Of a stretch of DNA of 64,000 nt, positions 25,101 through 38,685 are shown piece after piece. The translations under genes and the position numbers were made by a program. The notes beneath the pieces are model-generated. The model did no database searches, was not told the DNA's origin, and saw nothing but the letters and a program-made list of their open reading frames with translations. The stretch's first letter is position 1; each line of letters opens with the position of its first letter. The stretch is from positions 73,211 to 137,210 of the forward strand of contig JANXZX010000209.1 of the NCBI GenBank assembly GCA_025355325.1, given 5' to 3'. Source of the DNA: Geobacteraceae bacterium. Its GTDB lineage: Bacteria > Desulfobacterota > Desulfuromonadia > Geobacterales > Pseudopelobacteraceae.

Positions 25101-28100
25101 CACTGGCATATGCTTCGGTAAATCCTTTCGAATCGCCCGGTACTCCGCCGTCCAGCAGCAGCGACGGCACACCAAGCAGCGTTGCAAAATGCCCCAGACT
25201 GTAAGCCTGTTGCAGACCGGCGCGTGGTGCGACAAGTAGCGAGAGATTATCAGCCGCAGTCAATTCGGATAACGGATGACGCAGACCTTTATCATCCTCC
25301 CACAACGGCAGCGCATACCCGCTGCCGCCTGGAAGTGACGGGACTTCCGGCAGCAGACCGGCCCGGAAGGGAAGCACCAGGGTATGGGCATCGGCAAGCC
25401 GTCCGGTCATCGGGATAGTCGGTAATTTCGAGAAAGGTGCACCACCCTGCCACCAGCCGGTCGTATCAAGTATCTGGCGGCGGAACGGCTTGCGCAGAGA
25501 AACAGACTGAACCAACTGACAGGCGCTTAATCCCCAGCTGATTACCGGAGCGGCGATGAAGCGGGAAGGATCTTCATAGGCTGCCAGAACCGGCGGAACT
25601 GCGGCGAGACGGGCATCGAGCGTCGGTTTGGTAACCGTTTCAGCAATAATCTTCCCTTTGCCGTCAACCGTAAAGAGCAGCCAGCGCACAGCATCAAGCG
25701 GCGTAAAGCGCAGCAGCGTTCTGCCCGGCAGATTTTCCACTACGTCGATGAGTTCAATCGACTGCGGGGAAATGAGGCGACAGAGCCTTCCTCCTTTTCC
25801 GGAAGCACATTCTTTGTTGAACAACTGTTGCAGAGTGCTGAAGCGCTGCTGAGCACCTTTCAAGGTCTCGGCGCGGGAAGGTGTTTCGTCACTTGACCGG
25901 GAAATAACCCCCAGATCAACCGATGCCGCAGCCAGTCGGATCCCCGTATCTCCGGCAAAGCGGTAAAAAGTGGGAATTCGTTCCAGTTTGGCGCCAAACA
26001 GATCGTCAATAATCGCCTGCTCCTGCTGAAGTCGCAGCTGCAGGTAGTCTTTATCCGCTGTTGCAGCTTTGGCAACCGCACCACGCAGACGGTCGATTTC
26101 GGCAAGATGGGGCGCCGCAGCGCGGAACTGACCGAGCGTCGCCGGATCGTTAAGGCCGAGCGCACCGCGACCGAGAACCTGTACCCGCTCCAGTTCGCTC
26201 ATCTTTTCCAGCAGGGCAAACGCCTGTTCGGGATTTTTGGCGGCGAGTTTCTCCAGATAGGGCGCAAAGCGCTCCATGATCTCACCCTTTTGCAGGTCAA
26301 ACTCCGTCAGCGGCAGCTTCTCAAGCTGTGCCAGAGCTTCATCATAGCGGCCAAGCGCCGTAATTGCCCGCCATTCAAGTGCAGACGCCGCAGCAGTTCC
26401 GGCTTCTTCACGCGCAGCGTTCAGAGCTGTTTCAGCAGCATCGGACAGACCGAGCGCCGTAAGTACTGCGCCACGATTTAGCTGAGCAACCACCCGTTGA
26501 CGGTGCTGCTGATGCAGCAGGTCCCGATCACTACTGTCCGCAGCCGTAAGCAGCGTCCGGTCCCAATGTTCCAAAGCTTTAAATAATAGTGCCTGCCGAC
26601 CACCATCATCGGCGACAGATGGAGCCAGGCGAGCCAGCAGCGTTCCGGCATCATTATGATAGCGGCCATAGACGAGCGGCGGAAGAGCCGTACGGGATGT
26701 GTCCGCCAGCCGTGAGACGCGCGCCTCGGCGGCCAGATAGTCGCCTGTGTCAGCCGGTATTTCCCCGGCAGTCAACAGTTGCCCCCAGTTAATCAGATTG
26801 AGCATGGCACTGATCGGATTGCCGGACTGCAGCGAAAGGATCGTTGAACGCTGAAAATCACGCGCTGAATTTTCCCGGTCACCCAACGCATAATCAATAT
26901 GAGCGATGCGGTGTGAAAGCAGCGTAACGCCATACAGATCTTTGACGGCAATTTTTTTGATGTCAGACGGATAGCGATTCAGCTGATTCTTGAGCAAAAC
27001 CAAAGCTGTTGACGGGTCACCCAATTCCGATTGAATGCGGGCCAGATACGTCTCGGCCAGTCGTTTTTCCTGCTCGGCAGTGAAGCCGAAAGCGGCATCG
27101 GTGGAGCCCCCCTTGTCAAGAGAAACAGTTGCCGATATTTCCACCAGACCACCGCTCCGTTTTGCCGGTGTCTTGGACTTGGGCGGATTTTTTTCAATGA
27201 GTATCAACAGATCACTAAACCCGTCCCGGCTCAAGCGGAGCAACCGCTGCTGTTCCTCACCGGATGCCGCGTGAGCTTCCTTGTACGCGGCTATACTGGC
27301 TGAACGCCGATTTGAGGCAAGATTACCGGTAAAACCGAGCCCCTGATTCAGTTTGAAAGCTTCATCAAAATGTTCGCGGGCTGCGGAATAGCGATCAGCT
27401 TCAAGATACGCCAGACCGAGTCGGTCATGAATCTCTGCAGTCGTTTCCACCAGACGCGGAACTGAGTCCAGCTCCTTTTCCACCGCAGTTGCCATAGAGT
27501 TAAGCTCAGAAAGGAATTTGACGGCATCCTTGTGCCAGGAAGGGGCAGACTTGAGAAGCGCACGTTGCCGCTCCAGCAGACTTCGCAGCGTCTTGTCAAA
27601 ACCGGTCCAGGCGGCTGATGGCGGGGCTTCGGGAGGCACAGTTCCGAGCCGGTCGAGTTCGGCGCTAATCGCCTGATGCTCGTTAAGCGCTGCTTCTGCG
27701 CTCGTACTTCGCCCCGTTCCGGAAAAGAGACGTTCTACGACACGCCGCGACAGCTTCCCGAACAGATCAAGCGGCCGGGACGGGTTCAGGCGGTCCTCTG
27801 ACAGTTTAAGCGCCCTGAGATAACCGGTGATCGGCGCTTCTTTTTCGCGCATTTGAAATGCAACTGCCGCGTAGCGCTGCTGAAAAATCAGTTCAGTTTC
27901 CGGATTGTCGAACGGAATCTTTGCGGCGAGTCTTTCGCTGTAAAACTTCCAGGCGGTTGCCTTGCTGCCAAGCAGATACGCAATATTGCCGATATTAAGA
28001 TTCAGGTTGGCACGATTTTCCGGCTGTTCCACCGGCCGGTTGAGCAGCCAGGCGCGGCGGTAGAGCGCGAGCGCCCGTTCCAACCCGCCCCTCTCGCCAT

Positions 28101-30519
28101 GTACCGTCTCGGCAACTTCGGCAAGATATCCGCGTGTCTGGGGAGGATATTCCGAAGAGGGCATCCGGTCAGCGGCGCGGGCAATCAGCCGGTCTGCTTC
28201 ATCAAAGCTCTCTTTTCCCGGCAGATACGTGAGCGTCAACCCGGTTGCATAAAGAAGCACCGGATCATCAGGGGAGGAACTCAGCAGTTTACGGTACAGG
28301 TCAAGCAACTCTTGAGTCTGCCCCATCGCGGCAACCGATTTAATGTAGCCCCGGTGTGCCTCAATACTCCGCCCGTCATAACGAATGAGGTCGAGAAAGA
28401 TCGACCGTGCAGCAGCAACTTCCCCGAGACGGTACAGATTTTCACCAGCCGCAACCGTTTTGCGAATGTAGGCGGCCCGGGCCAGTTGATACAGTGGTGT
28501 ATCTTCCGGCTGTTCACTCATCTCTGTTTCGTAGAGCGCCTTGGCCTCCCCATAGCGCTCTTCACGATACAGCACTTCTGCCAGCGCAAAACGCGCCGCC
28601 GCGGTCGGCGTTGCCACTCTCGGGAACTTTTCCAGAACCGTGCGGTAGGCATCCTTGGCCTTAGCCCATTCGTTGGCCCGATACGCCGTGTCACCCTGAC
28701 GATTCCAGGCACCCATTGCCAGACGTGGAAGAATCGTTCGGTAGCGTTCCGCCAGCGCCGAAAGCGCCATCAGATCAGAACGGTCAGGGGGCGAAACCTG
28801 ATCCAGAATGGCGGATATTGCAGCCTCAGCCCATTCCTCCTGATCATCGTACGTGGCGGCAACATCAACCAGTGCTTTGAGTGCCCCCTCCCCTTTTTCC
28901 AGTTTTGCCAGCAGAACAGCCCGCCGCAAAGCAGCTTCCGCCTTCAGAGGGCGGCTGGCATCCTGCAACCGGGCAACCTGTTCGGCCAGTCCGGCTGCGG
29001 TCAGCAAATCGGCAGCTCCGCCGCCAAAATCGGCAAGAAGCCGCGCGTTGTCGATCAAATACCGTGCCGCAGCATCGGCGCCTTTACCCGCCGCAGCAGT
29101 TTTCATCGCCTGCTCCGCCTGGCGGATCAGCTCCTGACGCCGCTGCCCCGACGCAACGTCGCCGCAGCGCTGTGCTGTCCGTACCCTGATCCGGGCAATA
29201 CCTGCCAGGGCTGCTTCACGGGGAAAACTGGAGTAGCGACGTACAATCGCTGCATACTGTTCTTCTGCCTGTGCCATTTCTCCGGACTGTTCCATTAATC
29301 CAGCCAGTGCAAGGCCTGCCAAAGCACCTTCAAGTGTCGGCGCATCCTCCCGGGCCAGAACACGGGCAGACGCAAGACGGGCATGGGCCGGATCCGGCGG
29401 TTGACGTTCCAGAAGGATTTTTGCCAGCGCCCACTGGTCGGCAACGGTCGGGCGTTCCGGTATTTCGCCGGATGCGGGGAGGGACATGACCTGTCCACCA
29501 CCGGCCAGACCGGCGACGAAGTAAAAATGATCGCCCGCCGGGAGCGGCGCCACCGCCATCAGTGCGGCAGACGTAAGCGGTGCAACAAACGGGAGGCCGT
29601 CATCGCCACTGCGTTTAAAATGCAGCCGGTGGATCTGCCCCGACTCCTGCCCGGTTGCAGCATTTCCCCCAACCGCAGACTGGCGGGTGAAAAGAAGGGT
29701 ATCAGCACTTTCCCAGGCCGGATACAGATCGCGTTCAGCACCACTGGTCAGCTTTGTAAGCTGCCCGCCCTGCTCATTCCACATCCAGAGATCACCATTC
29801 GGATCTGACTTTCGCGACACAAATACCCATTTTTTTCCGTCCGGCGAAGGGGCCGCAAATGCCGCATCAATATCAATCGGCAGTTTTTCACTCCGGTTAT
29901 CCGCGAGGTTGAACAGTACCAGCTCACGTTGAGCTGCCCCCGGCATCAGGCGTTGATACACCACAGATTCACCGTCAACAGTAAATACCGGCGCATCGTC
30001 GGCGGATTCCCGACCGGTCAGTTTTTTGGGTTGCTCATCTGACTTTACAATATTTATCAGCCAGATATCACCCTTTACATCATCCTCTGCATCAACATAT
30101 GCAACCTGAGTTCCGGTAGAATTAAGAGCGGGAGCGGCGAGTCTAACCGGACTGGTATGGAGCAGGCGCGGCAATTCCGGAACTGCGCCAAACGAGTAGA
30201 GCCACAGTTCATCCCCCTTGTCACCACGCTCGACGGTAACCATCCGTGAACCATTTGCAGAGCGGCTGACATACAGAACCTGACGGGAGCTGAAAATTGC
30301 CGGCTGCGGCACAAGCTCGGGTCGGGAGCGAGGTGCTGAACGGGGTATGGCCGGGGCCAACAGCTCATCACCCAGCGGCAGCGCCACCGCAGGGAAGGAG
30401 CAGACAAACAACATCAGTACAAGTAAAAGCGCTTTAAAGCAGCTTCCCAGAATATAATCCCCCCTCCCTTGACGGGAGGGGGTTAGGGGGTGGGTGAAGC
30501 TGCAACATGGCATCTTCAT
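22168..30519 (-). CDS. Giant secreted protein: PD40/TolB-like beta-propeller + ~2000 aa of TPR repeats + C-terminal CHAT (caspase-like) protease domain
   Basis: The open frame is uninterrupted from 30627 and the start is ambiguous: 30627, ATG 30519 or 30513, or ATG 30414. The h-region FKALLLVLMLFVCSFPAVA|LP looks like a signal peptide. PD40 motifs are present (SPDGKKWVFVSRKSDPNGDLWMWN). The CHAT hallmarks are IHLASHGEF (His codon 22567-22569) and VLSACQTG (Cys codon 22432-22434). Confidence 0.85.
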   Translation of the reverse strand: MKMPCCSFTHPLTPSRQGRGDYILGSCFKALLLVLMLFVCSFPAVALPLGDELLAPAIPRSAPRSRPELVPQPAIFSSRQVLYVSRSANGSRMVTVERGDKGDELWLYSFGAVPELPRLLHTSPVRLAAPALNSTGTQVAYVDAEDDVKGDIWLINIVKSDEQPKKLTGRESADDAPVFTVDGESVVYQRLMPGAAQRELVLFNLADNRSEKLPIDIDAAFAAPSPDGKKWVFVSRKSDPNGDLWMWNEQGGQLTKLTSGAERDLYPAWESADTLLFTRQSAVGGNAATGQESGQIHRLHFKRSGDDGLPFVAPLTSAALMAVAPLPAGDHFYFVAGLAGGGQVMSLPASGEIPERPTVADQWALAKILLERQPPDPAHARLASARVLAREDAPTLEGALAGLALAGLMEQSGEMAQAEEQYAAIVRRYSSFPREAALAGIARIRVRTAQRCGDVASGQRRQELIRQAEQAMKTAAAGKGADAAARYLIDNARLLADFGGGAADLLTAAGLAEQVARLQDASRPLKAEAALRRAVLLAKLEKGEGALKALVDVAATYDDQEEWAEAAISAILDQVSPPDRSDLMALSALAERYRTILPRLAMGAWNRQGDTAYRANEWAKAKDAYRTVLEKFPRVATPTAAARFALAEVLYREERYGEAKALYETEMSEQPEDTPLYQLARAAYIRKTVAAGENLYRLGEVAAARSIFLDLIRYDGRSIEAHRGYIKSVAAMGQTQELLDLYRKLLSSSPDDPVLLYATGLTLTYLPGKESFDEADRLIARAADRMPSSEYPPQTRGYLAEVAETVHGERGGLERALALYRRAWLLNRPVEQPENRANLNLNIGNIAYLLGSKATAWKFYSERLAAKIPFDNPETELIFQQRYAAVAFQMREKEAPITGYLRALKLSEDRLNPSRPLDLFGKLSRRVVERLFSGTGRSTSAEAALNEHQAISAELDRLGTVPPEAPPSAAWTGFDKTLRSLLERQRALLKSAPSWHKDAVKFLSELNSMATAVEKELDSVPRLVETTAEIHDRLGLAYLEADRYSAAREHFDEAFKLNQGLGFTGNLASNRRSASIAAYKEAHAASGEEQQRLLRLSRDGFSDLLILIEKNPPKSKTPAKRSGGLVEISATVSLDKGGSTDAAFGFTAEQEKRLAETYLARIQSELGDPSTALVLLKNQLNRYPSDIKKIAVKDLYGVTLLSHRIAHIDYALGDRENSARDFQRSTILSLQSGNPISAMLNLINWGQLLTAGEIPADTGDYLAAEARVSRLADTSRTALPPLVYGRYHNDAGTLLARLAPSVADDGGRQALLFKALEHWDRTLLTAADSSDRDLLHQQHRQRVVAQLNRGAVLTALGLSDAAETALNAAREEAGTAAASALEWRAITALGRYDEALAQLEKLPLTEFDLQKGEIMERFAPYLEKLAAKNPEQAFALLEKMSELERVQVLGRGALGLNDPATLGQFRAAAPHLAEIDRLRGAVAKAATADKDYLQLRLQQEQAIIDDLFGAKLERIPTFYRFAGDTGIRLAAASVDLGVISRSSDETPSRAETLKGAQQRFSTLQQLFNKECASGKGGRLCRLISPQSIELIDVVENLPGRTLLRFTPLDAVRWLLFTVDGKGKIIAETVTKPTLDARLAAVPPVLAAYEDPSRFIAAPVISWGLSACQLVQSVSLRKPFRRQILDTTGWWQGGAPFSKLPTIPMTGRLADAHTLVLPFRAGLLPEVPSLPGGSGYALPLWEDDKGLRHPLSELTAADNLSLLVAPRAGLQQAYSLGHFATLLGVPSLLLDGGVPGDSKGFTEAYASAALGDARKKLQPGWLLIGDWGPDAVEAAKLGKSRFTEYGKAGVQAHNAGLFAKALSHFENALVIIEENPSLSKQRTTLHRYARESAFAAGFTDRAIVHAEALVKGLAKEKPYSADHADALLRLGLLQGNAERFAEAAVSLKEGVGIFTELGMAKEEAAALADFGVVMENAVNFSAARTFFEEAAGLRRTLKDDVSLAEQYRNLGRIYDLRLNQYAVAAQYYGQAGEIYRKVSNAPLEAETLLERGRCQRLLGNFPAADKFYTDALAIVGTKDLRTKMRIVLEQANNAWFQGRYQEAFDLREQVEKAALAEKWPLEQVMAKNTGGLIWWTLGDNKRAQLELRGALVRAEKLAVRRDEVATTLNNIGLVQRESREYTAALATLEKALEIDRKLGSRWAMAYDLRNLGQTRLKMGDASAALLQFSEAAGMATDIGDKVNLAKIYLARGDAEAELKQAAVAEASYRKALEIADALLLREVRWRALLGLARLQNLAGDSLKAVASYQQALETVEGLRAEIKLDQLKDGFLADKMDVYSGLVSLLVDLKRSDEAFAVAERSRSRSLIDILGRQRLSLSGAVNQELYDHQNRLKEQILEQESLSVQAVNPKERARYSDALQRLQAEYQDLLIDIERKRPDLLALVKVSPTTLDDVRKLLEPGVVLLSYYQLPDRLLCWKIDHDQAKLIIQNIPAKELAAKISSYRRMLQNLEPLEKQSRELYDLLVAAPLAGSGSLRSVGIIPHGSLHYLAFATLSDGRDYLVDRQKLFYLPAASVLKYTLARRQQNKNLRVLAIGNPDLGNSALDLPFAEREAGTLRWNYPDVTTLTRERATESWVREHISEFGVIHLASHGEFDPVNPLFSAIRLTKDNKADGKLQAEEVFGLDIRADLVVLSACQTGLGDIRSGDDVVGMNRAFIFAGTHSLMSSLWRVSDVSTAIMMKQFYRNYMTYGKSESLTRAMQHVKNRYPHPGYWGAFVLTGDYQ

Positions 30520-30566
30520 TGCAATCTTCCCGCCCACCCTAACCCTCCCCCGCCAGTGGGGAGGGG
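30459..30566. repeat. Pair of inverted REP-like GC-rich elements (each about 36 bp with an internal hairpin)
   Basis: The left unit is CCCCCCTCCCTTGACGGGAGGGGGTTAGGGGGTGGGTG. The right unit is CGCCCACCCTAACCCTCCCCCGCCAGTGGGGAGGGG. The two are near reverse complements of each other and are separated by about 34 bp. This GGGAGGGG/TTAGGGTGGG type of element is a common intergenic repeat in many bacteria. Confidence 0.7.
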
Positions 30567-30611
30567 ACTTTTTTTGTTGTGAGTGTGTATTATTGAATGT
30601 CCGGTTCCGGT

Positions 30612-31214
30612 TCATAGCAGTATCCACGCGCCGCCAGCCTCCTGCACCTTGGTGCCGGGGGCACTGTTCTGACGGTTGATTTTGGCAAATACCTTGCGGA
30701 TAGCCGGGATATCCTTGCTCGTAAAGTTTTCATTAGTCTGCACAACCCGCATCATCAGCACGTCCCGCGACTGATTGACCTCCTTCACGACCTGCTGGAA
30801 CTCGGCTTCGCTGTAATTGGCGGCAAATGACTTCAGCTCCACAGACGTAACCTTGGGGGTTTCGCGGGTAAATGGAGTCAAGAGCCCTTCCTGATTTTCG
30901 CCAATCCAGCCGAAACGCTTGAAAGTTTCGATATCGTCGGCATGAAAAGCGATAGTTTCCAGAGCCCTGGTGGCATCAGCCTGCTCAGGAGTATGACGGG
31001 GAGGAGCATCGATCTTACCGGTCGGGGACACGCCCCGCACCGATGCCACCAGCAGCATATCCTCATTGAGGCTGTTATAGGTCCCGAGCACCTGATTTTC
31101 CAGTGAGGTTCGCTCGCTGACGACATTGACATCAACCTTGGCAAGGGTACAGCCGGATACAAATAAAGCCAGGCCGAGGGTCGTCAATCGGATGGCAAAT
31201 GATCTATTGTGCAT
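30612..31214 (-). CDS. Lipoprotein with DUF1318/YdbL-like C-terminal half
   Basis: The 200-aa ORF has a lipobox, LFVSGC. The C-terminal half (GWIGENQEGLL ... VNQSRDVLMMRVV ... IRKVFAKINRQNSAPGTKVQEAGGAW) follows the YdbL/DUF1318 pattern as I remember it. It overlaps the upstream giant gene by 11 nt. Confidence 0.5.
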   Translation of the reverse strand: MHNRSFAIRLTTLGLALFVSGCTLAKVDVNVVSERTSLENQVLGTYNSLNEDMLLVASVRGVSPTGKIDAPPRHTPEQADATRALETIAFHADDIETFKRFGWIGENQEGLLTPFTRETPKVTSVELKSFAANYSEAEFQQVVKEVNQSRDVLMMRVVQTNENFTSKDIPAIRKVFAKINRQNSAPGTKVQEAGGAWILL

Positions 31215-34200
31215 ATATCCTCCGTTTCAATGAAAGTTCACCTTTTGGACCAATAATCAGGGTATCGGCCCGTACCAGATCAAGAAGGCCACGTAATGCC
31301 ATGATTCCCGCTTTGTTCTTTTGCAGTTCCTGACGAAGCGGCAGCTCGGAAATACGCAGACGCTCCACCTTTGGCAGTTCTACTTCAACCCCCTTGATGT
31401 ACGCCTCACCCTCCATGCTGAAGGCGCCGTCAACCGCCCGGGCACGCAATCCTTTCAAACCGCCCAGCCGCAACATTTTCCGCTGAGCCACTACCTGCTC
31501 ATTTCGCTCATATGGATCAAGAGCAAATAGAGCCCTCTCGATCATATCAGCTCCGATTTTACGCACATTCAAAGCCAGCCGCAACTGTTCAAACAGTTCG
31601 CGCTGCTCGGTCGTCAGCGGTGCGGTAAAACTCATTTCTCCGGTAATTTCAGCGTTCTGATTCGTGCGCTGTTTTCCGGCATCTTTCGGCAGTAGATACG
31701 TAATATCAAGGTTTGAAAATGAACCGGCGGTCGTAATCGCCGGAATCTCCGGAAGCAGATCAATAATTCCGCGCGCGAGAAGCGTTCCTCCCAGCAGATC
31801 CGCCTGAAAAAAGCTGAGACCGGTTTTTTCCTGTGTGAAGAGCAAATCGCCCTCCAGCGCGGTGAGTTCCAGCGGCACTCCGGACGCTTTGGTCGTGACG
31901 CGCTGGATTGAAAATGAACGGACCCCGTGAATATCGCCGCGCAGATCTTCGTTGATTCGTCCGGCAATTTCCAGGGCACCGGGATTGGCCGTCACAGCCG
32001 CTACCGGTCGGATAAGGGCCGCAGAAAGCGGAGCCCATCCCCCGCCTTTAACCGCTGCCAGGGCATATACCCGATTAAAGGTGATATCGGATCGCACCCC
32101 TTCAACTGTGGTTCCGTTGGCAAGCCGAACATCAAAATCCCTCGTCTGTACCGCACTGCGCAGCGCAAGTTCGCGGCCGGCACTGAGATCAATCCGTGTA
32201 CTGCTGCCGACACTGCCCGCTACGGAAATGCCGGGCAAGAGCTGCCGTAATTCCCGCGAAAACGCGCCGTCAACAGTGGCAAACAGGGTGGCGTCAAGTC
32301 GTTTGATCAATGTCGCCGGGTTGAATGGTTCTTTTTCATCGAGCAGCGCATCGATTCGACTGACGCTCAACTCGGCCTCCTGCGAAATTGCCAGCGGATC
32401 GATCCGCAGCTGTTCGTTCAGGAAAAACTCATTCCCTCCGCTGAATACGCCGTCGAATGTCAGTTTACCATGCTGGGTGGGTAATTTACCGGCAGTTCCC
32501 GAAAGGCCGGTCACTCCGGAGAACCGTACTGCACCCTCTATTCCGGCCGAATCTCCGTTCTTGGTCGAATACATTCGTACATCCGGCCCGGTGCGCAGAC
32601 CCGTTACGGTTATCTCCCCTTTCGCAGACGGAACTGTTGCCGAGACATTATCAAGCTTTACACCAAATTCCAGTTTGTCAAACAATGCCATTCCGGTCCT
32701 GGCACTGCGCAACGGATTTTTATCAAATGCCGGCGCTTTTTCCGGCAGCGGTGCGGCGAGATCCCAGACCACTCCCATTTTGCCGTCTGCCTTCATACCG
32801 GATGGAACAAAGGAGGCGCCGAATTTCAGCGCGCGTTTCAGGTCAAGCTGTACAGTGCCGCTGGTAGCGGCACGCTGGGGAGATGTGCCCGAAAGAGACG
32901 CCCCGGCGGTAATACGGAGGAAATCACCCGCCGAGACTGAGGCCGATGCTTTCTGGACAGAAGGCTTCGCTCCTTTGACGGCAGGAAGGCGGAGCGAGGC
33001 TGTAGTAAGAGAAGCGGAAAGCGGAATCGGGCCAAATTTCCTCCCGGACTGTATTCCCTGCATTGAGCCGGCGGTTACGGAAAACTCGGGAAGATTGGCT
33101 TCAATGTCGCCATTCTCGGCGGCACGTGCCAGAAGGCGGAGCTGTTCGTGGACATTTTCAACCGTCAGCCGTTTTTCAAGCGAAAGTCGATCCAGATCGA
33201 ATGTTTGGGTGATTGTTGCGGAAGCGGAAACCTTGCGCGGTGAGGCGCTTTTCAGATTGAGATCCGTCACCGCAAGTACGGCTTTTCCCCGAGCGCCACG
33301 AACAGAGAGTGATTGGGTGCCGGAAATCGCTGCATCCCTGATGCTCCAGAGCAGATCCGTCGTCAGTTTTGTCGGCATGTTGCCGGATAATGGGCAGGTC
33401 AACGTTTCAATAATAACTTCACTATTGTTCGCCGTCAGTTCCCCCGCTTTAAGTGCCATTCGAACTCGCGGGAGCGTAATGCCAAAGCCGGAGAGTTTGG
33501 CATCGCCCTGATTTTTGGGACCAATCAGGTGCAGTGACAGAGTGCGAAGAAATACTTCACCGGCAAGATCTTTAACGGGCATTCCGGGGGGGATAAAAGG
33601 GGCAGCAACTGCCAGCGCCCGGGAAAGATCAATGCGCAGCGGACCGAAGGTTATGTCCAGCGTGCGTTCCGGAACTGACGGACGGTTGACGGAAGCGCTC
33701 CACGCGGCGGTAATCAAGCCGGGCATGGCAATGGAGCCGCCCGGGAAATCAACCCGCTGGGCTTTATGATCGGCGGCAATCTGCTGCTGTAGCTTCACCT
33801 CAAGCGGCCCGACCCGTTTTGCTTTCAGCGAACCGCCGCTTGCTGCCAGTCCTGTGCCGTCAACAGTCAGCGCAGCATGCAGATCATTATTCGTATCGGT
33901 TTTTGCCCGCAGCTGAACGTCAATATTACCATCAAGCTTCGGCACGGCAGGCGACAAAAACGGATGAGCAACCGCCAGCAGCCCAGGCAGGTTCAGCTTC
34001 AGGCGGGCAATAAAACCGTCAGCCTGACTGAGTCCGCCTGACAGGGTAACACTTGTTCCGGGCGCCGCCACTTCGACGGCAAAGAGTGCCGAGGCAAGAT
34101 GAATCCTCTGCACATTGGTCACAAGGTCACTAACCGTGGCATTGAGACTGACGTTACCCATCTCACGGCCATCGACCGTCACCCTCCCCTTCACCTCAGC

Positions 34201-34800
34201 CGTAATCGGCTTGGCGGCCAGCGACGGCATCGCGAAACGAAGGGAGAAATCCTGCAACTGCAGCTGCTTTCCCGGCACCCGATACACAACGTTCAGCGGT
34301 GCCGCATCAACCTTAACACGCAGATCAACCGGCAACGCATAATCAAGTTTCTGGATACGCTGGATCGACTCAGCCAGCATGGTCAATGGATCTTTGGTCG
34401 GAGGAGGCGGTTTTTTCGGACCGGGAGCAAGTTCGGCCCGGACATTTCGTATCCGCACCGTGAGGTCGATGCCGAAACGCCCGTCAACTCCGCTACCGAA
34501 AGAAGGGACAATTACTATCTGATCGATATTTGTTTTAAGAAGCGGTGCGGGACCGTCACCAAGGGTAAGTCCGGAGAGAGTCAGGCCGCCTAACCAGGTC
34601 AGGTCAAAATGTGACCAGGCCACCCGGCGTTTCAAAGAGGAAGAAAGTGCCTGTTGAATCCGGCTCTGTGCACTGTTGCTGCTGATGAATGCAGGGAGGA
34701 AGGCGACGCAAACCAGCAACAACAGCATGGTGCCGACCAGAACCAGCGAGATGATTTTGAGGGCGCATTTGATATGTATGTTACGAATAAATGTAATCAT
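31204..34800 (-). CDS. Large AsmA-family / YdbH-like envelope protein
   Basis: The 1198-aa ORF has a single N-terminal TM anchor (IISLVLVGTMLLLLVCVAFLPAF). A long beta-rich, low-complexity body typical of AsmA/TamB/YdbH-type proteins follows. It is paired with a YdbL-like lipoprotein, as in E. coli ydbH-ynbE-ydbL. Confidence 0.5.
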   Translation of the reverse strand: MITFIRNIHIKCALKIISLVLVGTMLLLLVCVAFLPAFISSNSAQSRIQQALSSSLKRRVAWSHFDLTWLGGLTLSGLTLGDGPAPLLKTNIDQIVIVPSFGSGVDGRFGIDLTVRIRNVRAELAPGPKKPPPPTKDPLTMLAESIQRIQKLDYALPVDLRVKVDAAPLNVVYRVPGKQLQLQDFSLRFAMPSLAAKPITAEVKGRVTVDGREMGNVSLNATVSDLVTNVQRIHLASALFAVEVAAPGTSVTLSGGLSQADGFIARLKLNLPGLLAVAHPFLSPAVPKLDGNIDVQLRAKTDTNNDLHAALTVDGTGLAASGGSLKAKRVGPLEVKLQQQIAADHKAQRVDFPGGSIAMPGLITAAWSASVNRPSVPERTLDITFGPLRIDLSRALAVAAPFIPPGMPVKDLAGEVFLRTLSLHLIGPKNQGDAKLSGFGITLPRVRMALKAGELTANNSEVIIETLTCPLSGNMPTKLTTDLLWSIRDAAISGTQSLSVRGARGKAVLAVTDLNLKSASPRKVSASATITQTFDLDRLSLEKRLTVENVHEQLRLLARAAENGDIEANLPEFSVTAGSMQGIQSGRKFGPIPLSASLTTASLRLPAVKGAKPSVQKASASVSAGDFLRITAGASLSGTSPQRAATSGTVQLDLKRALKFGASFVPSGMKADGKMGVVWDLAAPLPEKAPAFDKNPLRSARTGMALFDKLEFGVKLDNVSATVPSAKGEITVTGLRTGPDVRMYSTKNGDSAGIEGAVRFSGVTGLSGTAGKLPTQHGKLTFDGVFSGGNEFFLNEQLRIDPLAISQEAELSVSRIDALLDEKEPFNPATLIKRLDATLFATVDGAFSRELRQLLPGISVAGSVGSSTRIDLSAGRELALRSAVQTRDFDVRLANGTTVEGVRSDITFNRVYALAAVKGGGWAPLSAALIRPVAAVTANPGALEIAGRINEDLRGDIHGVRSFSIQRVTTKASGVPLELTALEGDLLFTQEKTGLSFFQADLLGGTLLARGIIDLLPEIPAITTAGSFSNLDITYLLPKDAGKQRTNQNAEITGEMSFTAPLTTEQRELFEQLRLALNVRKIGADMIERALFALDPYERNEQVVAQRKMLRLGGLKGLRARAVDGAFSMEGEAYIKGVEVELPKVERLRISELPLRQELQKNKAGIMALRGLLDLVRADTLIIGPKGELSLKRRIYAQ

Positions 34801-34886: not shown

Positions 34887-35162
34887 TTATTGTTCGACTC
34901 GTTTCTTACTTACTAGAGGATAATTCTCAGGATAAAGAATGCAATTAACATCCAGATCAATATCAAGCTCAGGCCAGTAAAGGTGGTTTTTTGAAGGCAT
35001 TTCAACATGGAGGATTTTCTTTATTGATGCTTCTTGAAACCATGGAAAATGCTCAAACGCCAGAAACAACTCTTGAGTATCAATTAGCATCCAGATTCCA
35101 TTGCACGAAATATTGGTAACTTCAGCTGGGAAAATGTTGGTGCCATGCTGTGCTGATTTCAT
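34887..35162 (-). CDS. DUF2442-family protein (putative antitoxin-like partner)
   Basis: The 91-aa ORF contains FEHFPWFQEASIKKILHVEMPSKNHLYWPELDIDLDVNCIL, which matches the DUF2442 consensus (yP.L..As ... WP.lD.Dl). Confidence 0.7.
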   Translation of the reverse strand: MKSAQHGTNIFPAEVTNISCNGIWMLIDTQELFLAFEHFPWFQEASIKKILHVEMPSKNHLYWPELDIDLDVNCILYPENYPLVSKKRVEQ

Positions 35163-35361
35163 TTTGATGCTCCCTAATAAGGTTGTCTGCCTCGTTTAAT
35201 TCCCTCATTGAAAGCCCATGATTCTGGGCAATCTGTATTTCCGGTTCCAACCAGAACTTGGCTTCTCCGTTACTTGACTGCACGTGAATATGCATTCTTG
35301 GCTCTTCTCTGGAGAAGAAGTAGAAACGAAAACCGGCTTCACGAAAAACGGTTGGACTCAT
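35122..35361 (-). CDS. DUF4160-family protein (putative toxin-like partner)
   Basis: I prefer the ATG at 35361 (MSPTVFREAGFRFYFFSREEPRMHIHVQ...). The sequence matches the DUF4160 consensus (yrfyfys.E...pHvHv). It overlaps the DUF2442 gene. Confidence 0.7.
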   Translation of the reverse strand: MSPTVFREAGFRFYFFSREEPRMHIHVQSSNGEAKFWLEPEIQIAQNHGLSMRELNEADNLIREHQNEISTAWHQHFPS

Positions 35362-35747
35362 TATAGCATATCCCCTTAATTCAACAGCTTTATCATGATA
35401 TACGACCTCAGATATCAATGGTCAATTCATTTATTCAAAATACGGCTGGTGTCGAGATATATGAGAATCTCCTGTGCCCCATTCACAAATAGCCCACCCA
35501 CAGTCAAATATCAAACCCGACTACAATTGGTATACTAGTCCTATACACTGCTTGTTTTCCTGCATAAGTATCATAACTAGCTGTATTTACACACATGAAT
35601 TTCATAAGGGCATACCAGTAGTATCAAGTTTTCATACAGTAAACCGGCCAATGTATGCAAGGAACAACTCTTCAAAGATGCGAGTGATAATAAATTTACT
35701 GTGTATTATCGTATTGTTACTAATTTAATTCAAATAAATTCGAAACT

Positions 35748-35763
35748 TGGCACCAGCAGTGCA
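35748..35763 (+). promoter_or_regulatory. Candidate sigma-54 (RpoN) -24/-12 promoter
   Basis: TGGCACCAGCAGTGCA compared with the consensus TGGCACG-N4-TTGCW. The GG and GC dinucleotides have exact spacing. The site is 55 bp upstream of the first small-protein ATG (35819) and lies in an AT-rich non-coding stretch. Confidence 0.55.
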
Positions 35764-35818
35764 ATAACAAAAGACAAGAGCAATCAAATTCAACAAAGAC
35801 TTTAAATAGGAGGATGTC

Positions 35819-36037
35819 ATGAGAGCACTTATTACCACCATCGTAGGAACATTAGCTCCCGTATCAGCATTTGCAGCATCAGGTATAACTGAAGATAGTG
35901 GAATCTTTGTTTGGATCTTCCTTGGTTTCTTTGCAGTGATAGTAGTTGGACAGATACTTCCTGCAATAATGCTGATGACAGGTCTGGTAAAGGGACTCAC
36001 ATCCAAGACCGAAGTTAAAGCTGACGTAAAAAACTAA
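35819..36037 (+). CDS. Small membrane protein, paralogue 1 (72 aa)
   Basis: A GGAGGA RBS lies 5 nt upstream. A signal-peptide-like N-terminus (…PVSAFA|ASG) is followed by a TM helix, IFVWIFLGFFAVIVVGQILPAIMLMTGLV, and a charged tail. It is paralogous to the next two ORFs. Confidence 0.65.
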   Translation: MRALITTIVGTLAPVSAFAASGITEDSGIFVWIFLGFFAVIVVGQILPAIMLMTGLVKGLTSKTEVKADVKN

Positions 36038-36095
36038 GCCACTTAATTCTACGAACCACAAACTAAACTGATATTACAATAAAAAGGAGATCGCC

Positions 36096-36347
36096 ATGAA
36101 CGCCAAACAGACTTTAACAACAGTATTGAGTACAGCAGCTATCAGCCTTATTACTTGCACCGGCGCTTTCGCATCATCAGGCGTAACAAACAAAGTATTC
36201 GTAAGTGGTCCGCTAATTCTTATCTTTCTCGGCTTCTGTGCATTCGTAGTGGTTATGCAGTGTGTCCCGGCAGCTATAATGCTGTATGGCATGATCAAAG
36301 GTACAATTTCTATAAAAACTGGTGAAAAGGTTGAAGTCAAGAACTAG
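36096..36347 (+). CDS. Small membrane protein, paralogue 2 (83 aa)
   Basis: An AAGGAG RBS lies upstream. It has the same architecture (…TGAFA|SSG, TM LILIFLGFCAFVVVMQCVPAAIMLYGMI). Its tail KTGEKVEVKN parallels KTEVKADVKN in paralogue 1. Confidence 0.65.
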   Translation: MNAKQTLTTVLSTAAISLITCTGAFASSGVTNKVFVSGPLILIFLGFCAFVVVMQCVPAAIMLYGMIKGTISIKTGEKVEVKN

Positions 36348-36414
36348 GAAAGTTGCCTATATAATTAAATGAAAAGCGGTTAAATCCATCAGAAATCAGT
36401 AACAGGTGGATGTC

Positions 36415-36603
36415 ATGAGAGCACTTATTATCACCATCATAGGAGCATTAGTTCCCGCAACAGCACTTGCATCAGGAGGAAGTGCAGACGAAAGCAGAAT
36501 CTTGATGTGGCTGTTTTTAAGCTTATGCTCACTGATCCTCGTAACTCAGATAATCCCGGGAGTAGCGCTGATGTCTCGCCTGGAAAAGATTTTGCACCGG
36601 TAG
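36415..36603 (+). CDS. Small membrane protein, paralogue 3 (62 aa)
   Basis: The ATG at 36415 is preceded by AGGTGG. The first ~55 nt are about 85% identical to paralogue 1 (ATGAGAGCACTTATTA...). It reads …ATALA|SGG with the TM ILMWLFLSLCSLILVTQIIPGVALM. Confidence 0.6.
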   Translation: MRALIITIIGALVPATALASGGSADESRILMWLFLSLCSLILVTQIIPGVALMSRLEKILHR

Positions 36604-36675
36604 TTGTTAAGGTGGGAGTGAGCGGCAGTAAAAGCTAAATCAGGCGGATACGCGAAAATCGAAGAAGTGTAGAAG

Positions 36676-36700
36676 GGCCACCTTAAGGGGTGGCCTTTTT
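36676..36700 (+). terminator. Rho-independent terminator after the small-protein array
   Basis: GGCCACC-TTAAGG-GGTGGCC is followed by TTTTT. Confidence 0.75.
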
Positions 36701-36718
36701 ACTTTGATGATAAATTGA

Positions 36719-37096
36719 TTATGCTGCTAATTTTGCTGGTGTGCTCAACGATGCGTGAATTTCCACATCATCCCACGGCACAAAAACTCGTCCTTTTTCG
36801 TCCTTTGATACCAACTCCAATTCCAAAAGCCTGATTATGTCAGAATGTACGTTGCTATAATTGCGACCGGTCAATTTTGCAAGTCTGTAGACAGACAGAT
36901 TTCCTTCCTGCTTCAGGCGACATAACAGCTCCATACGTTTTGGCGTCAGCTCGGAGAACATTTGAGTTGGCGAGGCAAAATTAAGATGATAATCCGCATC
37001 AGGCAGATGCTCTCTCAAATCAAGTTTTTCCCCAAGCCCGAGCAAACCCTTACGTGTAGCTGTCCAGTCACTAATTCCGATGATTGCCTTATTCAT
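36719..37096 (-). CDS. HTH DNA-binding protein, TumA/HVO_A0114-like putative antitoxin
   Basis: The 125-aa ORF contains LTPKRMELLCRLKQEGNLSVYRLAKLTGRNYSNVHSDIIRLLELELV, a winged-HTH. It overlaps the upstream TumE-like gene by 4 nt. Confidence 0.6.
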   Translation of the reverse strand: MNKAIIGISDWTATRKGLLGLGEKLDLREHLPDADYHLNFASPTQMFSELTPKRMELLCRLKQEGNLSVYRLAKLTGRNYSNVHSDIIRLLELELVSKDEKGRVFVPWDDVEIHASLSTPAKLAA

Positions 37097-37383
37097 AATT
37101 TTACTCCCGTTAAGCGTTCAACGTCCGCCAAAAAGTCTTCTGCAAGTTTTGTAAATGTTGTGTAGCAATACGTTTCCTCGCGGGCTCCGTAATGTCGGTG
37201 ATCACCCTTTCCGGTTTCGTTGTCATATCGAACGAGACACTCACCATTTCTGCCGCAATATAGACGATATTTCAGGCTGTGTGGGCGATCCGGCGTGGCT
37301 TCTGCCAACTCCCAAACCACCGTCTCAACAATGACGCCGCCCGTAAATTCTTCTTTTGACTTCCGGAGCAATCTCGCTTTCAT
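37093..37383 (-). CDS. TumE-family (DUF6516-like) putative toxin
   Basis: The 96-aa ORF contains VIVETVVWELAE...HSLKYRLYCGRNGECLVRYDNETGKGDHRHYG, which matches the remembered TumE/DUF6516 consensus (YDN..GKG.HRH). Confidence 0.6.
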   Translation of the reverse strand: MKARLLRKSKEEFTGGVIVETVVWELAEATPDRPHSLKYRLYCGRNGECLVRYDNETGKGDHRHYGAREETYCYTTFTKLAEDFLADVERLTGVKL

Positions 37384-37545: not shown

Positions 37546-37806
37546 TTGAATATGATGAATGCAAATAATTCCATCCAGCTTGCAATAAACGCAGTGGGAG
37601 AATTAAAACGGCACTATCGCAATGGGGCATATCGAGCTATCAGGGACCCTGAAGGTAAAATATCTTTATGGGCCATCGAAGGTAATCCTCATGATCCATT
37701 TTCTATATCATTCGTGGATAAAGGGCGTGTGTATAACAATATCGGTGATGTACCTGATACCATGCTGAAATCATTTGTAGAATATGTCAGGAAAACAGTT
37801 AGATAA
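37546..37806 (+). CDS. Hypothetical protein (86 aa)
   Basis: The ORF has a G-rich RBS (GGGGGGGG) 8 nt upstream. It is divergent from the TumE/TumA-like pair. I recognise no family. Confidence 0.4.
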   Translation: MNMMNANNSIQLAINAVGELKRHYRNGAYRAIRDPEGKISLWAIEGNPHDPFSISFVDKGRVYNNIGDVPDTMLKSFVEYVRKTVR

Positions 37807-38098
37807 GTCACGGTCTTTTACGTCCAAAGGCTTCCCCTGCATGAAGAATTATAAGCCTGAACCGCGTATTTCAGAAGAGTTAGTAAATGAGAAAGGAACG
37901 TACCTCTGAGGTTTCCCTGAGGTGCCTCGGCACTCCCCCACACGAACTAATAGATAAATAGATAACAGCGTTATCACGGCACTCCCAGCTATGATACTTT
38001 GTCATTGTCTTTGAATTCAAACCGTTATATTGTTAAAGTAGTATTTAAATACAGATGTGTTTGGATTTAGTGAAGAAAATGGAAAGGAAATAAGTAAT

Positions 38099-38317
38099 AT
38101 GCGTGTTGAAGCGATAGTAAAAAAAGGCGGCTGGTTCATACCTCATCCTGGCTTTGCAGTTGGCAAACAAAAACATATTCTCCTCGATATAACCCCCGTT
38201 GCCGCAGGAGATGTATCGGATGATGCATTTGTGCAAGCAGCCGGTATGTTGAAGAAAACTACAATTGACGGAGTTACTTTTCAGAAAAAAATGCGGAAAG
38301 AATGGGATGGGCGGTAG
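38099..38317 (+). CDS. Putative VapB-type antitoxin
   Basis: I prefer the ATG at 38099 (MRVEAIVKKGGWFIP...). The C-terminal AAGMLKKTTIDGVTFQKKMRKEWDGR resembles antitoxins paired with PIN toxins. The stop overlaps the vapC start. Confidence 0.55.
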   Translation: MRVEAIVKKGGWFIPHPGFAVGKQKHILLDITPVAAGDVSDDAFVQAAGMLKKTTIDGVTFQKKMRKEWDGR

Positions 38318-38685
38318 TGTATCTGATAGACACAAACATAATCATTTACTACCTTGAAGGTGAACAAGCCGCCGTCTCGTTTTTACGTACCCATCGGGGA
38401 AAACTGGCAATATCGTCAATTACCTGGATGGAAACACTCTCGTACCCATTTAGCACTGATGAAGAACAAATAGTCCGGGCATTTCTACAGGAATTAAGGC
38501 TGATCGAAATTTCTTCCTCTGTGATGGAGTTGTCTGTAGAAATCCGTCGAACTAAAAAAATAAAACTTCCTGATGCAATAATAGCAGCGTCAGCCGTTCA
38601 TCATGACTTGATTCTTGTGACAAGAAATATCAAGGATTTCAAGGGAACCGCAGTAAAAACACTCGATCCGTTTGTAGCTTCGTAA
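38302..38685 (+). CDS. vapC: PIN-domain toxin VapC
   Basis: VYLIDTNIIIYYL carries the first PIN acidic residue. ...TWMETL..., LPDAIIAASAV and LILVTRNIKDF follow. The alternative GTG start at 38317 overlaps the antitoxin stop by 1 nt. Confidence 0.8.
   Translation: MGWAVVYLIDTNIIIYYLEGEQAAVSFLRTHRGKLAISSITWMETLSYPFSTDEEQIVRAFLQELRLIEISSSVMELSVEIRRTKKIKLPDAIIAASAVHHDLILVTRNIKDFKGTAVKTLDPFVAS

Follow-up and report, generated by a model that had tools for sequence, protein, structure and literature searches.

A satellite array of small membrane-protein genes in a Geobacteraceae bacterium and its probable relation to the cbcBA operon

The array and its coding strand

The stretch of DNA considered here, referred to below as the window, comprises 64,000 nt of contig JANXZX010000209.1 (assembly GCA_025355325.1) from a Geobacteraceae bacterium. 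It contains an array of three consecutive small open reading frames (ORFs) on the plus strand, ORF1 (35819..36037), ORF2 (36096..36347) and ORF3 (36415..36603, with an alternative GTG start at 36406), which encode 72, 83 and 62 amino acids (aa), respectively; these are the coordinates given in an earlier note made from the sequence alone. Our analysis suggests that the products are paralogues of the small proteins encoded in the cbcBA (menaquinol:cytochrome c oxidoreductase) operon of Geobacter and its relatives, and that the array probably belongs to the same regulon. ORF1 is of subtype A, with the second of the two cbcBA small proteins as its nearest counterpart, ORF2 is of subtype B (…NKVFVSGPLILIFLGFCAFVVVMQCVPA…) and ORF3 is of a short-tailed subtype. 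Because a sigma-54 element precedes only ORF1 and a strong terminator follows ORF3, the array is one three-gene operon of approximately 930 nt.

In full-length alignments the three products are 43-46% identical to one another, with no variation at M1, the A-x-A motif, F34, Q45 and P48 (ORF1 numbering). ORF1 and ORF3 had been described as approximately 85% identical at the DNA level at their starts; we measured 87% over the first 55 nt. The similarity sets in 8-14 nt upstream of the genes, within the common GGATGTCATG. ORF3 ends LEKILHR and has neither the K-G boundary nor the charged tail. It is 61% identical to a homologue of the same length, P0228, and since the two share the C-terminal ending LEK[IV]LHR we regard ORF3 as a conserved subtype rather than a decayed copy.

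The plus frame is coding and under purifying selection. In a codon alignment of 26 homologous genes from independent loci it contains no stops in 1900 codons, the divergence at codon positions 1, 2 and 3 is 0.27, 0.20 and 0.54, and 69% of single-base codon differences are synonymous. The best antisense frame, which shares the wobble position, reaches 55% synonymy with nine stops, while the other frames have 10-13% synonymy. The possibility that the antisense ORFs at 35725-36006 and 36074-36340 are the conserved ones can thus be dismissed from the codon statistics, which show them to be shadows of the plus-strand genes.

The terminator lies on the plus strand at approximately 36669..36706 and consists of a hairpin (GGGCCACC-UUAAGG-GGUGGCC) followed by a U-run (UUUUU). 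The hairpin folds at -26.5 kcal/mol (z = -5.52), and none of 200 shuffled sequences folds as well, in agreement with the proposal that the array has a terminator of its own. It is missing from the list produced by a simple pattern scan, and in an Rfam scan of the array region the sole match was sub-threshold and overlapped the terminator hairpin.

The control region upstream of ORF1

The sigma-54 (-24/-12) promoter, TGGCACCAGCAGTGCA, lies on the plus strand at 35748..35763, 55 nt before the ATG of ORF1, and matches the motif as TGGCAC-N5-GTGCA. In a 64-kb sequence one such match is by itself not significant. The same motif is found 47-64 nt before the first ATG of homologous arrays at approximately 80 independent loci, and this conservation bears out what had been only a candidate promoter. 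No such motif precedes ORF2 or ORF3.

Further upstream there are two activator-like sites of the form GTAT-N8-YATAC, both on the plus strand. The proximal site, GTATCAAGTTTTCATAC (35621..35637), lies 127 nt upstream of the -24 element and is the only exact match in the window, while the distal site, GTATACTAGTCCTATAC (35530..35546), lies 218 nt upstream of it. Sufficient upstream sequence was available for 111 genes of the protein family described below, 79 of which have a sigma-54 motif in first-gene geometry. The GTAT-N8-YATAC dyad is found 90-240 nt upstream in 78 of these 79, most commonly at 122-127 nt, and there is often a further copy 211-217 nt upstream of the -24 element. The offsets in the window fall at the edges of these two clusters. 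At a fixed position the dyad pattern is seen in 63 of 109 loci, against a chance expectation of approximately 0.24 per 64 kb. The promoters of canonical cbcBA operons have GTAT-N8-NATAC 100-115 nt upstream of the -24 element, often with a second copy at approximately 205 nt, and the array shares this geometry, with dyads falling within the ranges of approximately 100-127 and 205-218 nt before the sigma-54 element. The proximal site may therefore be read as a putative binding site for an enhancer-binding protein of the BccR type, the activator of the cbcBA operon.

In an alignment of 78 upstream regions anchored on the -24 element, TTGGCA[CT]-N5-[AGT]TGC[AT] is conserved together with the dyad GTAT-N8-[CT]ATAC approximately 125 nt upstream. 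Approximately 35 nt before the -24 element these promoters also share, within an AT-rich tract, a conserved ATATCAGCATGTTAC that is similar to the IHF consensus WATCARNNNNTTR. The corresponding tract of the window (…TATTATCGTATTGTTAC…, 35700..35722, plus strand), between the upstream sites and the promoter, would be a degenerate copy of such an IHF-like site. Such a combination of paired enhancer sites, bend site and -24/-12 element is the usual build of sigma-54 promoters that depend on an enhancer-binding protein.

The 5' untranslated region contains, at 35775..35818 on the plus strand, an 'ACAAGAGCAATCAAATTCAA' element and a Shine-Dalgarno block, AGGAGGATGTC, that correspond to conserved columns of the anchored alignment (ACAAAAGCAATCAAATTCAA and AGGAGGATGTCATG, respectively). 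The element, which can be written ACAA[AG]AGCAAT[CT]AAATTCAA (35775-35800 in the window, and in homologues), is situated between the promoter and the ribosome-binding site and has no match in Rfam. The block AGGAGGATGTCATG (35808-35821) is unusually conserved, its spacer included, and GGATGT stands directly before the ATG in 74 of 116 family genes. The binding consensus of CsrA is RUACARGGAUGU, which GGAUGU resembles, and CsrA may act on the mRNAs of the family. For gsu0597, a gene of the cbcBA operon of Geobacter sulfurreducens, a reduction in a csrA mutant has been reported (PMC11934962).

The protein family and its relation to cbcBA

The earlier note could assign the three proteins to no recognisable family, and as far as curated libraries are concerned this holds. 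Searches of ORF1-3 against Pfam, NCBIfam, PHROGs and PADLOC gave nothing significant, the sub-threshold matches (DUF6163, Tetraspanin and a pilin-like protein of integrative and conjugative elements, E = 0.01-0.05) being noise. A profile search of the PDB returned only hydrophobic-helix matches (E >= 0.1), and the best Foldseek match of an AlphaFold model in the PDB has E = 2.6, the two-helix model being too simple to inform. A large uncharacterised family does, however, exist in the Geobacter group. A search with ORF1 alone found 317 matching proteins and a profile of diverse members 1251, and an exhaustive search of 1.8 billion cluster representatives with a hidden Markov model (HMM) found 580 clusters at 50% identity (E <= 0.001), 127 of them with E <= 1e-10. 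Nearly all members are annotated as 'hypothetical' and have 60-110 aa. A Pfam domain is found in none of them, and the family is confined to genomes and metagenomes of the Geobacterales/Desulfuromonadales.

Tandem arrangement, the generality of which the earlier note had suggested surveying, is not the rule. We examined 95 non-redundant loci (individual loci are designated by L numbers) with 121 family genes, and singletons predominate (90, versus 14 pairs and one triple). The sole triple is the array in the window, and a pair in which an ORF1-type gene is followed by an ORF2-type gene (A+B) recurs at L002, L005, L006 and L007. A genome may have many loci: there are family genes on at least seven contigs of the metagenome-assembled genome CAJAFV01 and on four of JAQTXD01, and at three loci in G. 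hydrogenophilus DSM 13691. Satellite loci, away from the kinase and activator genes described below, make up approximately 80% of the loci surveyed, and the array in the window is one of them. The neighbourhoods are otherwise unrelated (glyQS, SSB/HU, HSP20 and others), and the only recurrent neighbours are respiratory or regulatory genes. HSP20/rpoH neighbours, seen at L001 and L002, were dropped as a lead as they do not recur elsewhere. Satellites are also present in cultured strains, namely Pelotalea chapellei DSM 13688 (L103, L105), G. hydrogenophilus DSM 13691 (L197, L202), Oryzomonas japonica Red96 (L210), Geomesophilobacter sediminis Red875 (L252) and G. argillaceus (L106). Most of these satellites outside the cbcBA operon stand behind a sigma-54 motif and several also behind the upstream site. 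In a distant Desulfuromonadales lineage (L025:77-1275) two adjacent family genes are separated by a REC gene from a third that precedes it (family–REC–family–family). One 219-aa protein, P0336, looks like a read-through of REC and a family member and is probably an annotation artefact.

A family profile was built from 140 representatives with no more than 50% pairwise identity. It starts with M-[KR] and a variable hydrophobic stretch of approximately 13 residues, which is followed by A (77%), an aromatic residue and A (94%), then by A or S, and by approximately eight polar, often acidic residues ending in S-G. In the helix that comes next F36, Q47 and P50 are each conserved at 99%, and G38, A41, L42 and I43 at 79-84%. 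After the helix there is a G57…K60-G61 boundary and a variable charged tail in which K and E alternate. Alignment and profile thus bear out the anatomy first described for the array, with an A-x-A site, one long hydrophobic helix containing Q-x-x-P and a charged tail. ORF1 and ORF2 carry all elements of the signature M-[KR]/A-x-A/S-G/F-L-G-F-x-A-L-I-V-V-x-Q-x-x-P-A…G-x-x-K-G, while ORF3 has the F, Q and P and is missing the G…K-G and the tail.

Because the hydrophobic core is variable while the small residues at -3 and -1 are conserved, we read the A-x-A motif as a signal-peptidase I site, and the products would be cleaved, single-pass inner-membrane proteins with the N-terminus outside and the C-terminus inside. 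The N-terminal stretch could instead stay uncleaved, giving two-helix hairpins with both ends in the cytoplasm. The AlphaFold model does have two helices (residues 2-20 and 28-70, pLDDT 85-87 in the transmembrane part), so that residues 2-20 are helical, and the N-terminal segment is well conserved among close relatives. Over the 140 divergent representatives, however, the stretch varies in sequence and length, it is short (approximately 13 residues) and contains T, G, P and S, and the M-K/R start with A at -3 (77%) and -1 (94%) is the pattern of a signal-peptidase I site; we consider the hairpin unlikely. Prepilin-type cleavage after S-G was rejected: the leader is not basic but hydrophobic, position +5 has no Glu, and A-x-A is better conserved. 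Positions 36, 40, 43, 47, 50, 54 and 57 of the profile have a 4-3-4-3 spacing, and the invariant residues (F36, Q47 and P50, with C40, I43 and G57) therefore lie on one a/d face of the helix. A single conserved face suggests helix-helix packing.

The relation to respiration is apparent at a distant member, P0347, which is the first gene beyond a divergently oriented kinase and sigma-54 activator and is followed by genes for a multihaem cytochrome c and a cytochrome b561-type protein. In G. sulfurreducens the cbcBA operon consists of five genes, GSU0597–GSU0596–GSU3489–cbcA–cbcB, divergent from the activator gene bccR (GSU0598). CbcBA is needed below about -0.21 V, bccR is required for strong induction of cbcBA once Fe(III) reduction lowers the redox potential, and the transcript is very highly expressed, above 99% of genes (bioRxiv 10.1101/2021.04.15.440034). 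GSU0597 and GSU3489 are named there only as hypothetical proteins of the operon (Joshi, Chan & Bond 2021, bioRxiv 10.1101/2021.04.15.440034), and in the literature on the two we found them only as hypothetical inner-membrane proteins in transcriptome lists.

We examined 83 loci, of which 80 were species-representative loci anchored on CbcB and three (L110-L112) came from look-ups of family members. Family members are present in 51 of them, and the family HMM matches the ORFs within the operon at 1e-17 to 1e-35. In the canonical layout, that of cultured strains, a histidine kinase and a sigma-54 enhancer-binding protein (EBP) are encoded divergently from a sigma-54 promoter followed by a first small gene, REC, a second small gene, multihaem CbcA and cytochrome b CbcB. 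In G. hydrogenophilus DSM 13691 (L164) the kinase gene comes first, then one for a REC-sigma54-helix-turn-helix activator on the opposite strand, and the products of the five genes are a small protein of 79 aa, a REC protein of 130 aa, a small protein of 76 aa, a multihaem cytochrome of 370 aa and a b561-type protein of 224 aa, a gene-for-gene match to the five-gene operon of G. sulfurreducens. The same order is found in G. argillaceus, Pelotalea chapellei, Oryzomonas japonica, Geomobilimonas luticola and Geobacter sp. AOG1. With the second small protein of L164 (L164:3595-3825) ORF1 shares 57% identity (E = 7e-21), and ORF2 aligns with the first (E = 3e-9), so that both ORF1 and ORF2 resemble the small ORFs situated between the sigma-54 promoter and cbcA.

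One set of neighbours recurs among the 95 loci, in 12-19 of them. It consists of two two-helix proteins, one of 82 aa and one of 113 aa with CxxC…CxxC, together with a HAMP-HisKA-HATPase kinase of 519 aa and an activator of 469 aa with REC, sigma-54 and helix-turn-helix (HTH) domains. In the clade of the window the genes form a core locus, [small][82 aa][113 aa][kinase][EBP], on the same contigs as cbcA-cbcB, which adjoin the activator (pairs of core and cbcBA loci are L017/L127, L014/L132, L073/L150, L043/L151 and L012/L160). The EBPs of the core loci are 67-69% identical to the EBP of G. hydrogenophilus, with near-identical HTHs. In the kinase at L002:7741-9300 and in eight homologues (L009, L012, L014, L017, L065, L073, L078 and L111) the periplasmic domain keeps a CxxCH near residue 114 and a CxxxxCH near residue 157, in nine cases out of nine. 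With its two haem-c motifs the kinase is a candidate periplasmic redox sensor of the regulon. The genes for the 82-aa and 113-aa proteins, neither of which has a family match, form an operon (L009:6290-6912 and L017:6280-6881, both on the minus strand, and L043, L061, L064, L095 and L107) with a sigma-54 motif of its own and a GTAT-N8-YATAC 114-126 nt upstream. This operon is probably in the same regulon. At L050:5259-5483 (minus strand) a 74-aa protein with a signal peptide is encoded behind the same upstream site and a sigma-54 motif; its resemblance to the acid-shock periplasmic protein Asr is weak (NCBIfam E = 3.9e-6, below the cutoff).

Surroundings, possible function and significance

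As the earlier note had stated, the array is set among toxin-antitoxin pairs in an AT-rich islet, and both the flanking families and a dip in GC content agree with this. Upstream, at 34887-35418 on the minus strand, there is a toxin-antitoxin-like DUF2442/DUF4160 pair; downstream, at 36719-37383 on the minus strand, a TumE gene is paired with one for a winged HTH protein of the HVO_A0114 type, and at 38057-38685 on the plus strand there is a PIN protein preceded by an 86-aa ORF, again a toxin-antitoxin-like pair. An 86-aa ORF at 37546-37806 has no family match. The GC content is 0.39-0.44 over 35-39 kb of the window, versus 0.51-0.59 on both sides, and 41-47% in the three ORFs themselves. The repeats of the islet are short chance repeats, with no attC-like structure and none resembling a miniature inverted-repeat transposable element. 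Farther upstream, at 22168-34800 on the minus strand, two very large ORFs (2819 aa, and 1198 aa without a Pfam match) bracket a DUF1318 protein (30612-31214); this cluster may be of an envelope or lipid-transport type.

Taken together, the array is likely to be a tricistronic, sigma-54-dependent satellite operon of paralogues of the cbcBA small proteins and a member of a BccR-type regulon, with products that most likely act by helix association. Because it retains the full enhancer and sigma-54 control region of the cbcBA operon, the array most likely falls in the BccR-type low-potential regulon, and its genes are probably induced in cells respiring close to their energetic limit. We propose that the histidine kinase with haem-c motifs would sense the falling redox potential and activate the BccR-like response regulator, a dependence demonstrated genetically for the cbcBA promoter of G. 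sulfurreducens and presumed to apply here. The regulator would bind the two GTAT-N8-YATAC sites, which are plainly present, and activate the promoter at 35748, with its conserved motif, giving a single mRNA that would end at the terminator near 36700. Each product would then be inserted via Sec and presumably cut after A-x-A, leaving a mature protein of approximately 40-55 residues with a short acidic periplasmic stub, a long transmembrane helix and a short cytoplasmic tail. In the last and least certain step, the helices would associate in the membrane with each other or with low-potential respiratory partners, such as CbcBA or the co-regulated small membrane proteins. We favour helix-helix association because the invariant residues share one a/d face.

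Several observations weigh against this interpretation. Neither cbcBA nor homologues of the kinase, the EBP or the 82-aa and 113-aa proteins were found in the 64 kb of the window, so that the array is not physically linked there to cbcA/cbcB and a bccR-like activator, and its regulation must come from a locus elsewhere. The AT-rich toxin-antitoxin islet could mean that the array was recently acquired, with uncertain integration into host regulation. The binding of BccR to GTAT-N8-YATAC is putative, cleavage of the signal peptide, topology and partners are predicted, and the membership of GSU0597 and GSU3489 themselves in the family is suggested by synteny in the congener G. hydrogenophilus. 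In the clade of the window (L017:10097-10290 and L014:2440-2690) the region between bccR and cbcA appears to have neither GTAT-N8-YATAC nor a canonical sigma-54 motif. A conserved AACTGCCAnCnCGTTGCA is present there approximately 35 nt before the start of cbcA. The control of cbcBA may differ in this clade, and the small proteins may there no longer be strictly co-regulated with CbcBA. Finally, seven or more loci in one genome are beyond the need of a 1:1 subunit of a single complex.

The number of copies also bears on the simplest idea for the role of the proteins, namely that they serve the quinol:cytochrome c oxidoreductase CbcBA as small stoichiometric subunits or as assembly factors, the satellites being isoforms. 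In most canonical operons two members immediately precede cbcA-cbcB in the same transcription unit, conservation on one helix face suggests a fixed partner, and the only structural resemblance, weak and non-significant (E > 2), is to small subunits of respiratory supercomplexes. Against this, up to seven or more dispersed loci per genome compare with one or two cbcB loci, and in the clade of the window the cbcBA operon has lost its in-operon copies and apparently the shared promoter; we therefore regard a subunit role as a real possibility but a rather unlikely one. The multiplicity of copies likewise counts against a role as feedback modulators that would bind the transmembrane region of the haem-motif sensor kinase, as MgrB does with PhoQ, since a feedback regulator needs neither many dispersed copies nor divergent subtypes, and most copies are far from the kinase. 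Such modulators, induced by the two-component system itself, would account for the family gene beside the kinase and EBP in 13-19 of 95 loci, together with two further small membrane proteins behind the same promoter type, and for the presence, between the small genes of canonical operons, of a gene for a REC-only protein that could act as a phosphate sink, but on balance the idea is improbable. The same promoter at up to seven or more loci, the very high cbcBA transcript and a single conserved helix face, as self-association would require, fit a bulk structural role instead. Abundant single-helix proteins that are amplified in dosage and made in bulk as the redox potential falls, rather than subunits of one enzyme, might reshape or expand the inner membrane, for example by seeding intracytoplasmic membranes, or tune ion leak and energy coupling, a proposal to which we also give little weight. 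G. sulfurreducens forms intracytoplasmic membranes under thermodynamically limiting conditions 'by an unknown mechanism' (PMC10082016).

The earlier note had proposed membrane-active effectors, holins or toxins, or secreted peptides, and this found no support. As type I toxins, holins or Sec-dependent bacteriocin-like peptides of the islet the proteins would fit in size, in their single hydrophobic helix and in the charged tail; the array does lie between toxin-antitoxin pairs in an AT-rich stretch, and tandem paralogues are typical of bacteriocin loci. There is, however, no PHROGs or PADLOC match, and tblastn found none in 50,697 phage or 72,556 plasmid records. The neighbours in the 95 loci vary and are not phage genes, the recurrent ones being respiratory or regulatory, and the founding copies lie within a conserved respiratory operon, with further homologues beside it. 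Strong purifying selection is seen over hundreds of copies in chromosomes, there is no recurrent gene for a cognate antisense RNA, for immunity or for export, and a stop-transfer helix followed by K-G implies that the product stays in the inner membrane of its producer. An effector role is accordingly very improbable, and no evidence ties the array in function to the toxin-antitoxin genes around it. A filamentous-phage coat protein or conjugative pilin was also rejected, as there is no phage or plasmid match, no neighbouring gene for morphogenesis, secretion or transfer, and the K/E tails are not net-basic; the match to an NCBIfam pilin-like conjugal protein is non-significant (E = 0.047).

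Known systems offer partial parallels to the satellite operon that we propose. The slots corresponding to GSU0597 and GSU3489 hold family members in G. hydrogenophilus, G. argillaceus, Pelotalea chapellei and Oryzomonas japonica, and cbcBA-type operons share with the array the sigma-54 promoter and the upstream GTAT-N8-YATAC sites. In contrast, the copies in the window are free-standing, without REC, cbcA or cbcB, and ORF3 is short-tailed; the comparison is made via the operons of these relatives. CydX/AppX of cytochrome bd, CcoQ of the cbb3 oxidase and PetG/L/M/N of b6f are likewise small, single-pass proteins encoded with a quinol-oxidising complex and have one conserved helix face. They show no sequence similarity to the family, and these known subunits are single-copy and have no cleaved signal peptides, whereas the family is amplified and dispersed. 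The Psp regulon resembles the present system in its sigma-54 promoters with enhancer and IHF-like sites and in having small inner-membrane proteins (PspB, PspC and PspG) at several loci under one activator. There is, however, no Pfam or NCBIfam match to Psp proteins, and the activator here is a two-component REC-AAA+-HTH protein with a haem-motif kinase rather than PspF/PspA. MgrB, too, is a small membrane protein induced by an adjacent two-component system, as at the core loci, but there is no homology, the family is multicopy and contact with the kinase is here only hypothetical.

At the thermodynamic edge of respiration Geobacter uses CbcBA as its inner-membrane route. Few cytochrome loci of the group are as well conserved as this operon, and the two small ORFs with which it begins have so far passed as 'hypothetical'. 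Our results indicate that these ORFs define a large family (approximately 580 clusters at 50% identity) and that many lineages have multiplied it outside the operon, in copies that keep the complete enhancer and sigma-54 promoter. The GTAT-N8-YATAC pattern offers a sequence-based prediction of the whole BccR-type regulon, which appears to include the operon for the 82-aa and 113-aa membrane proteins and, in one genome, an Asr-like periplasmic protein. The presence of satellites in several cultured strains makes genetic tests feasible. If our interpretation is correct, the array would be part of a testable low-redox-potential regulon, and the family would provide candidate membrane components for energy conservation and membrane proliferation near the respiratory limit.

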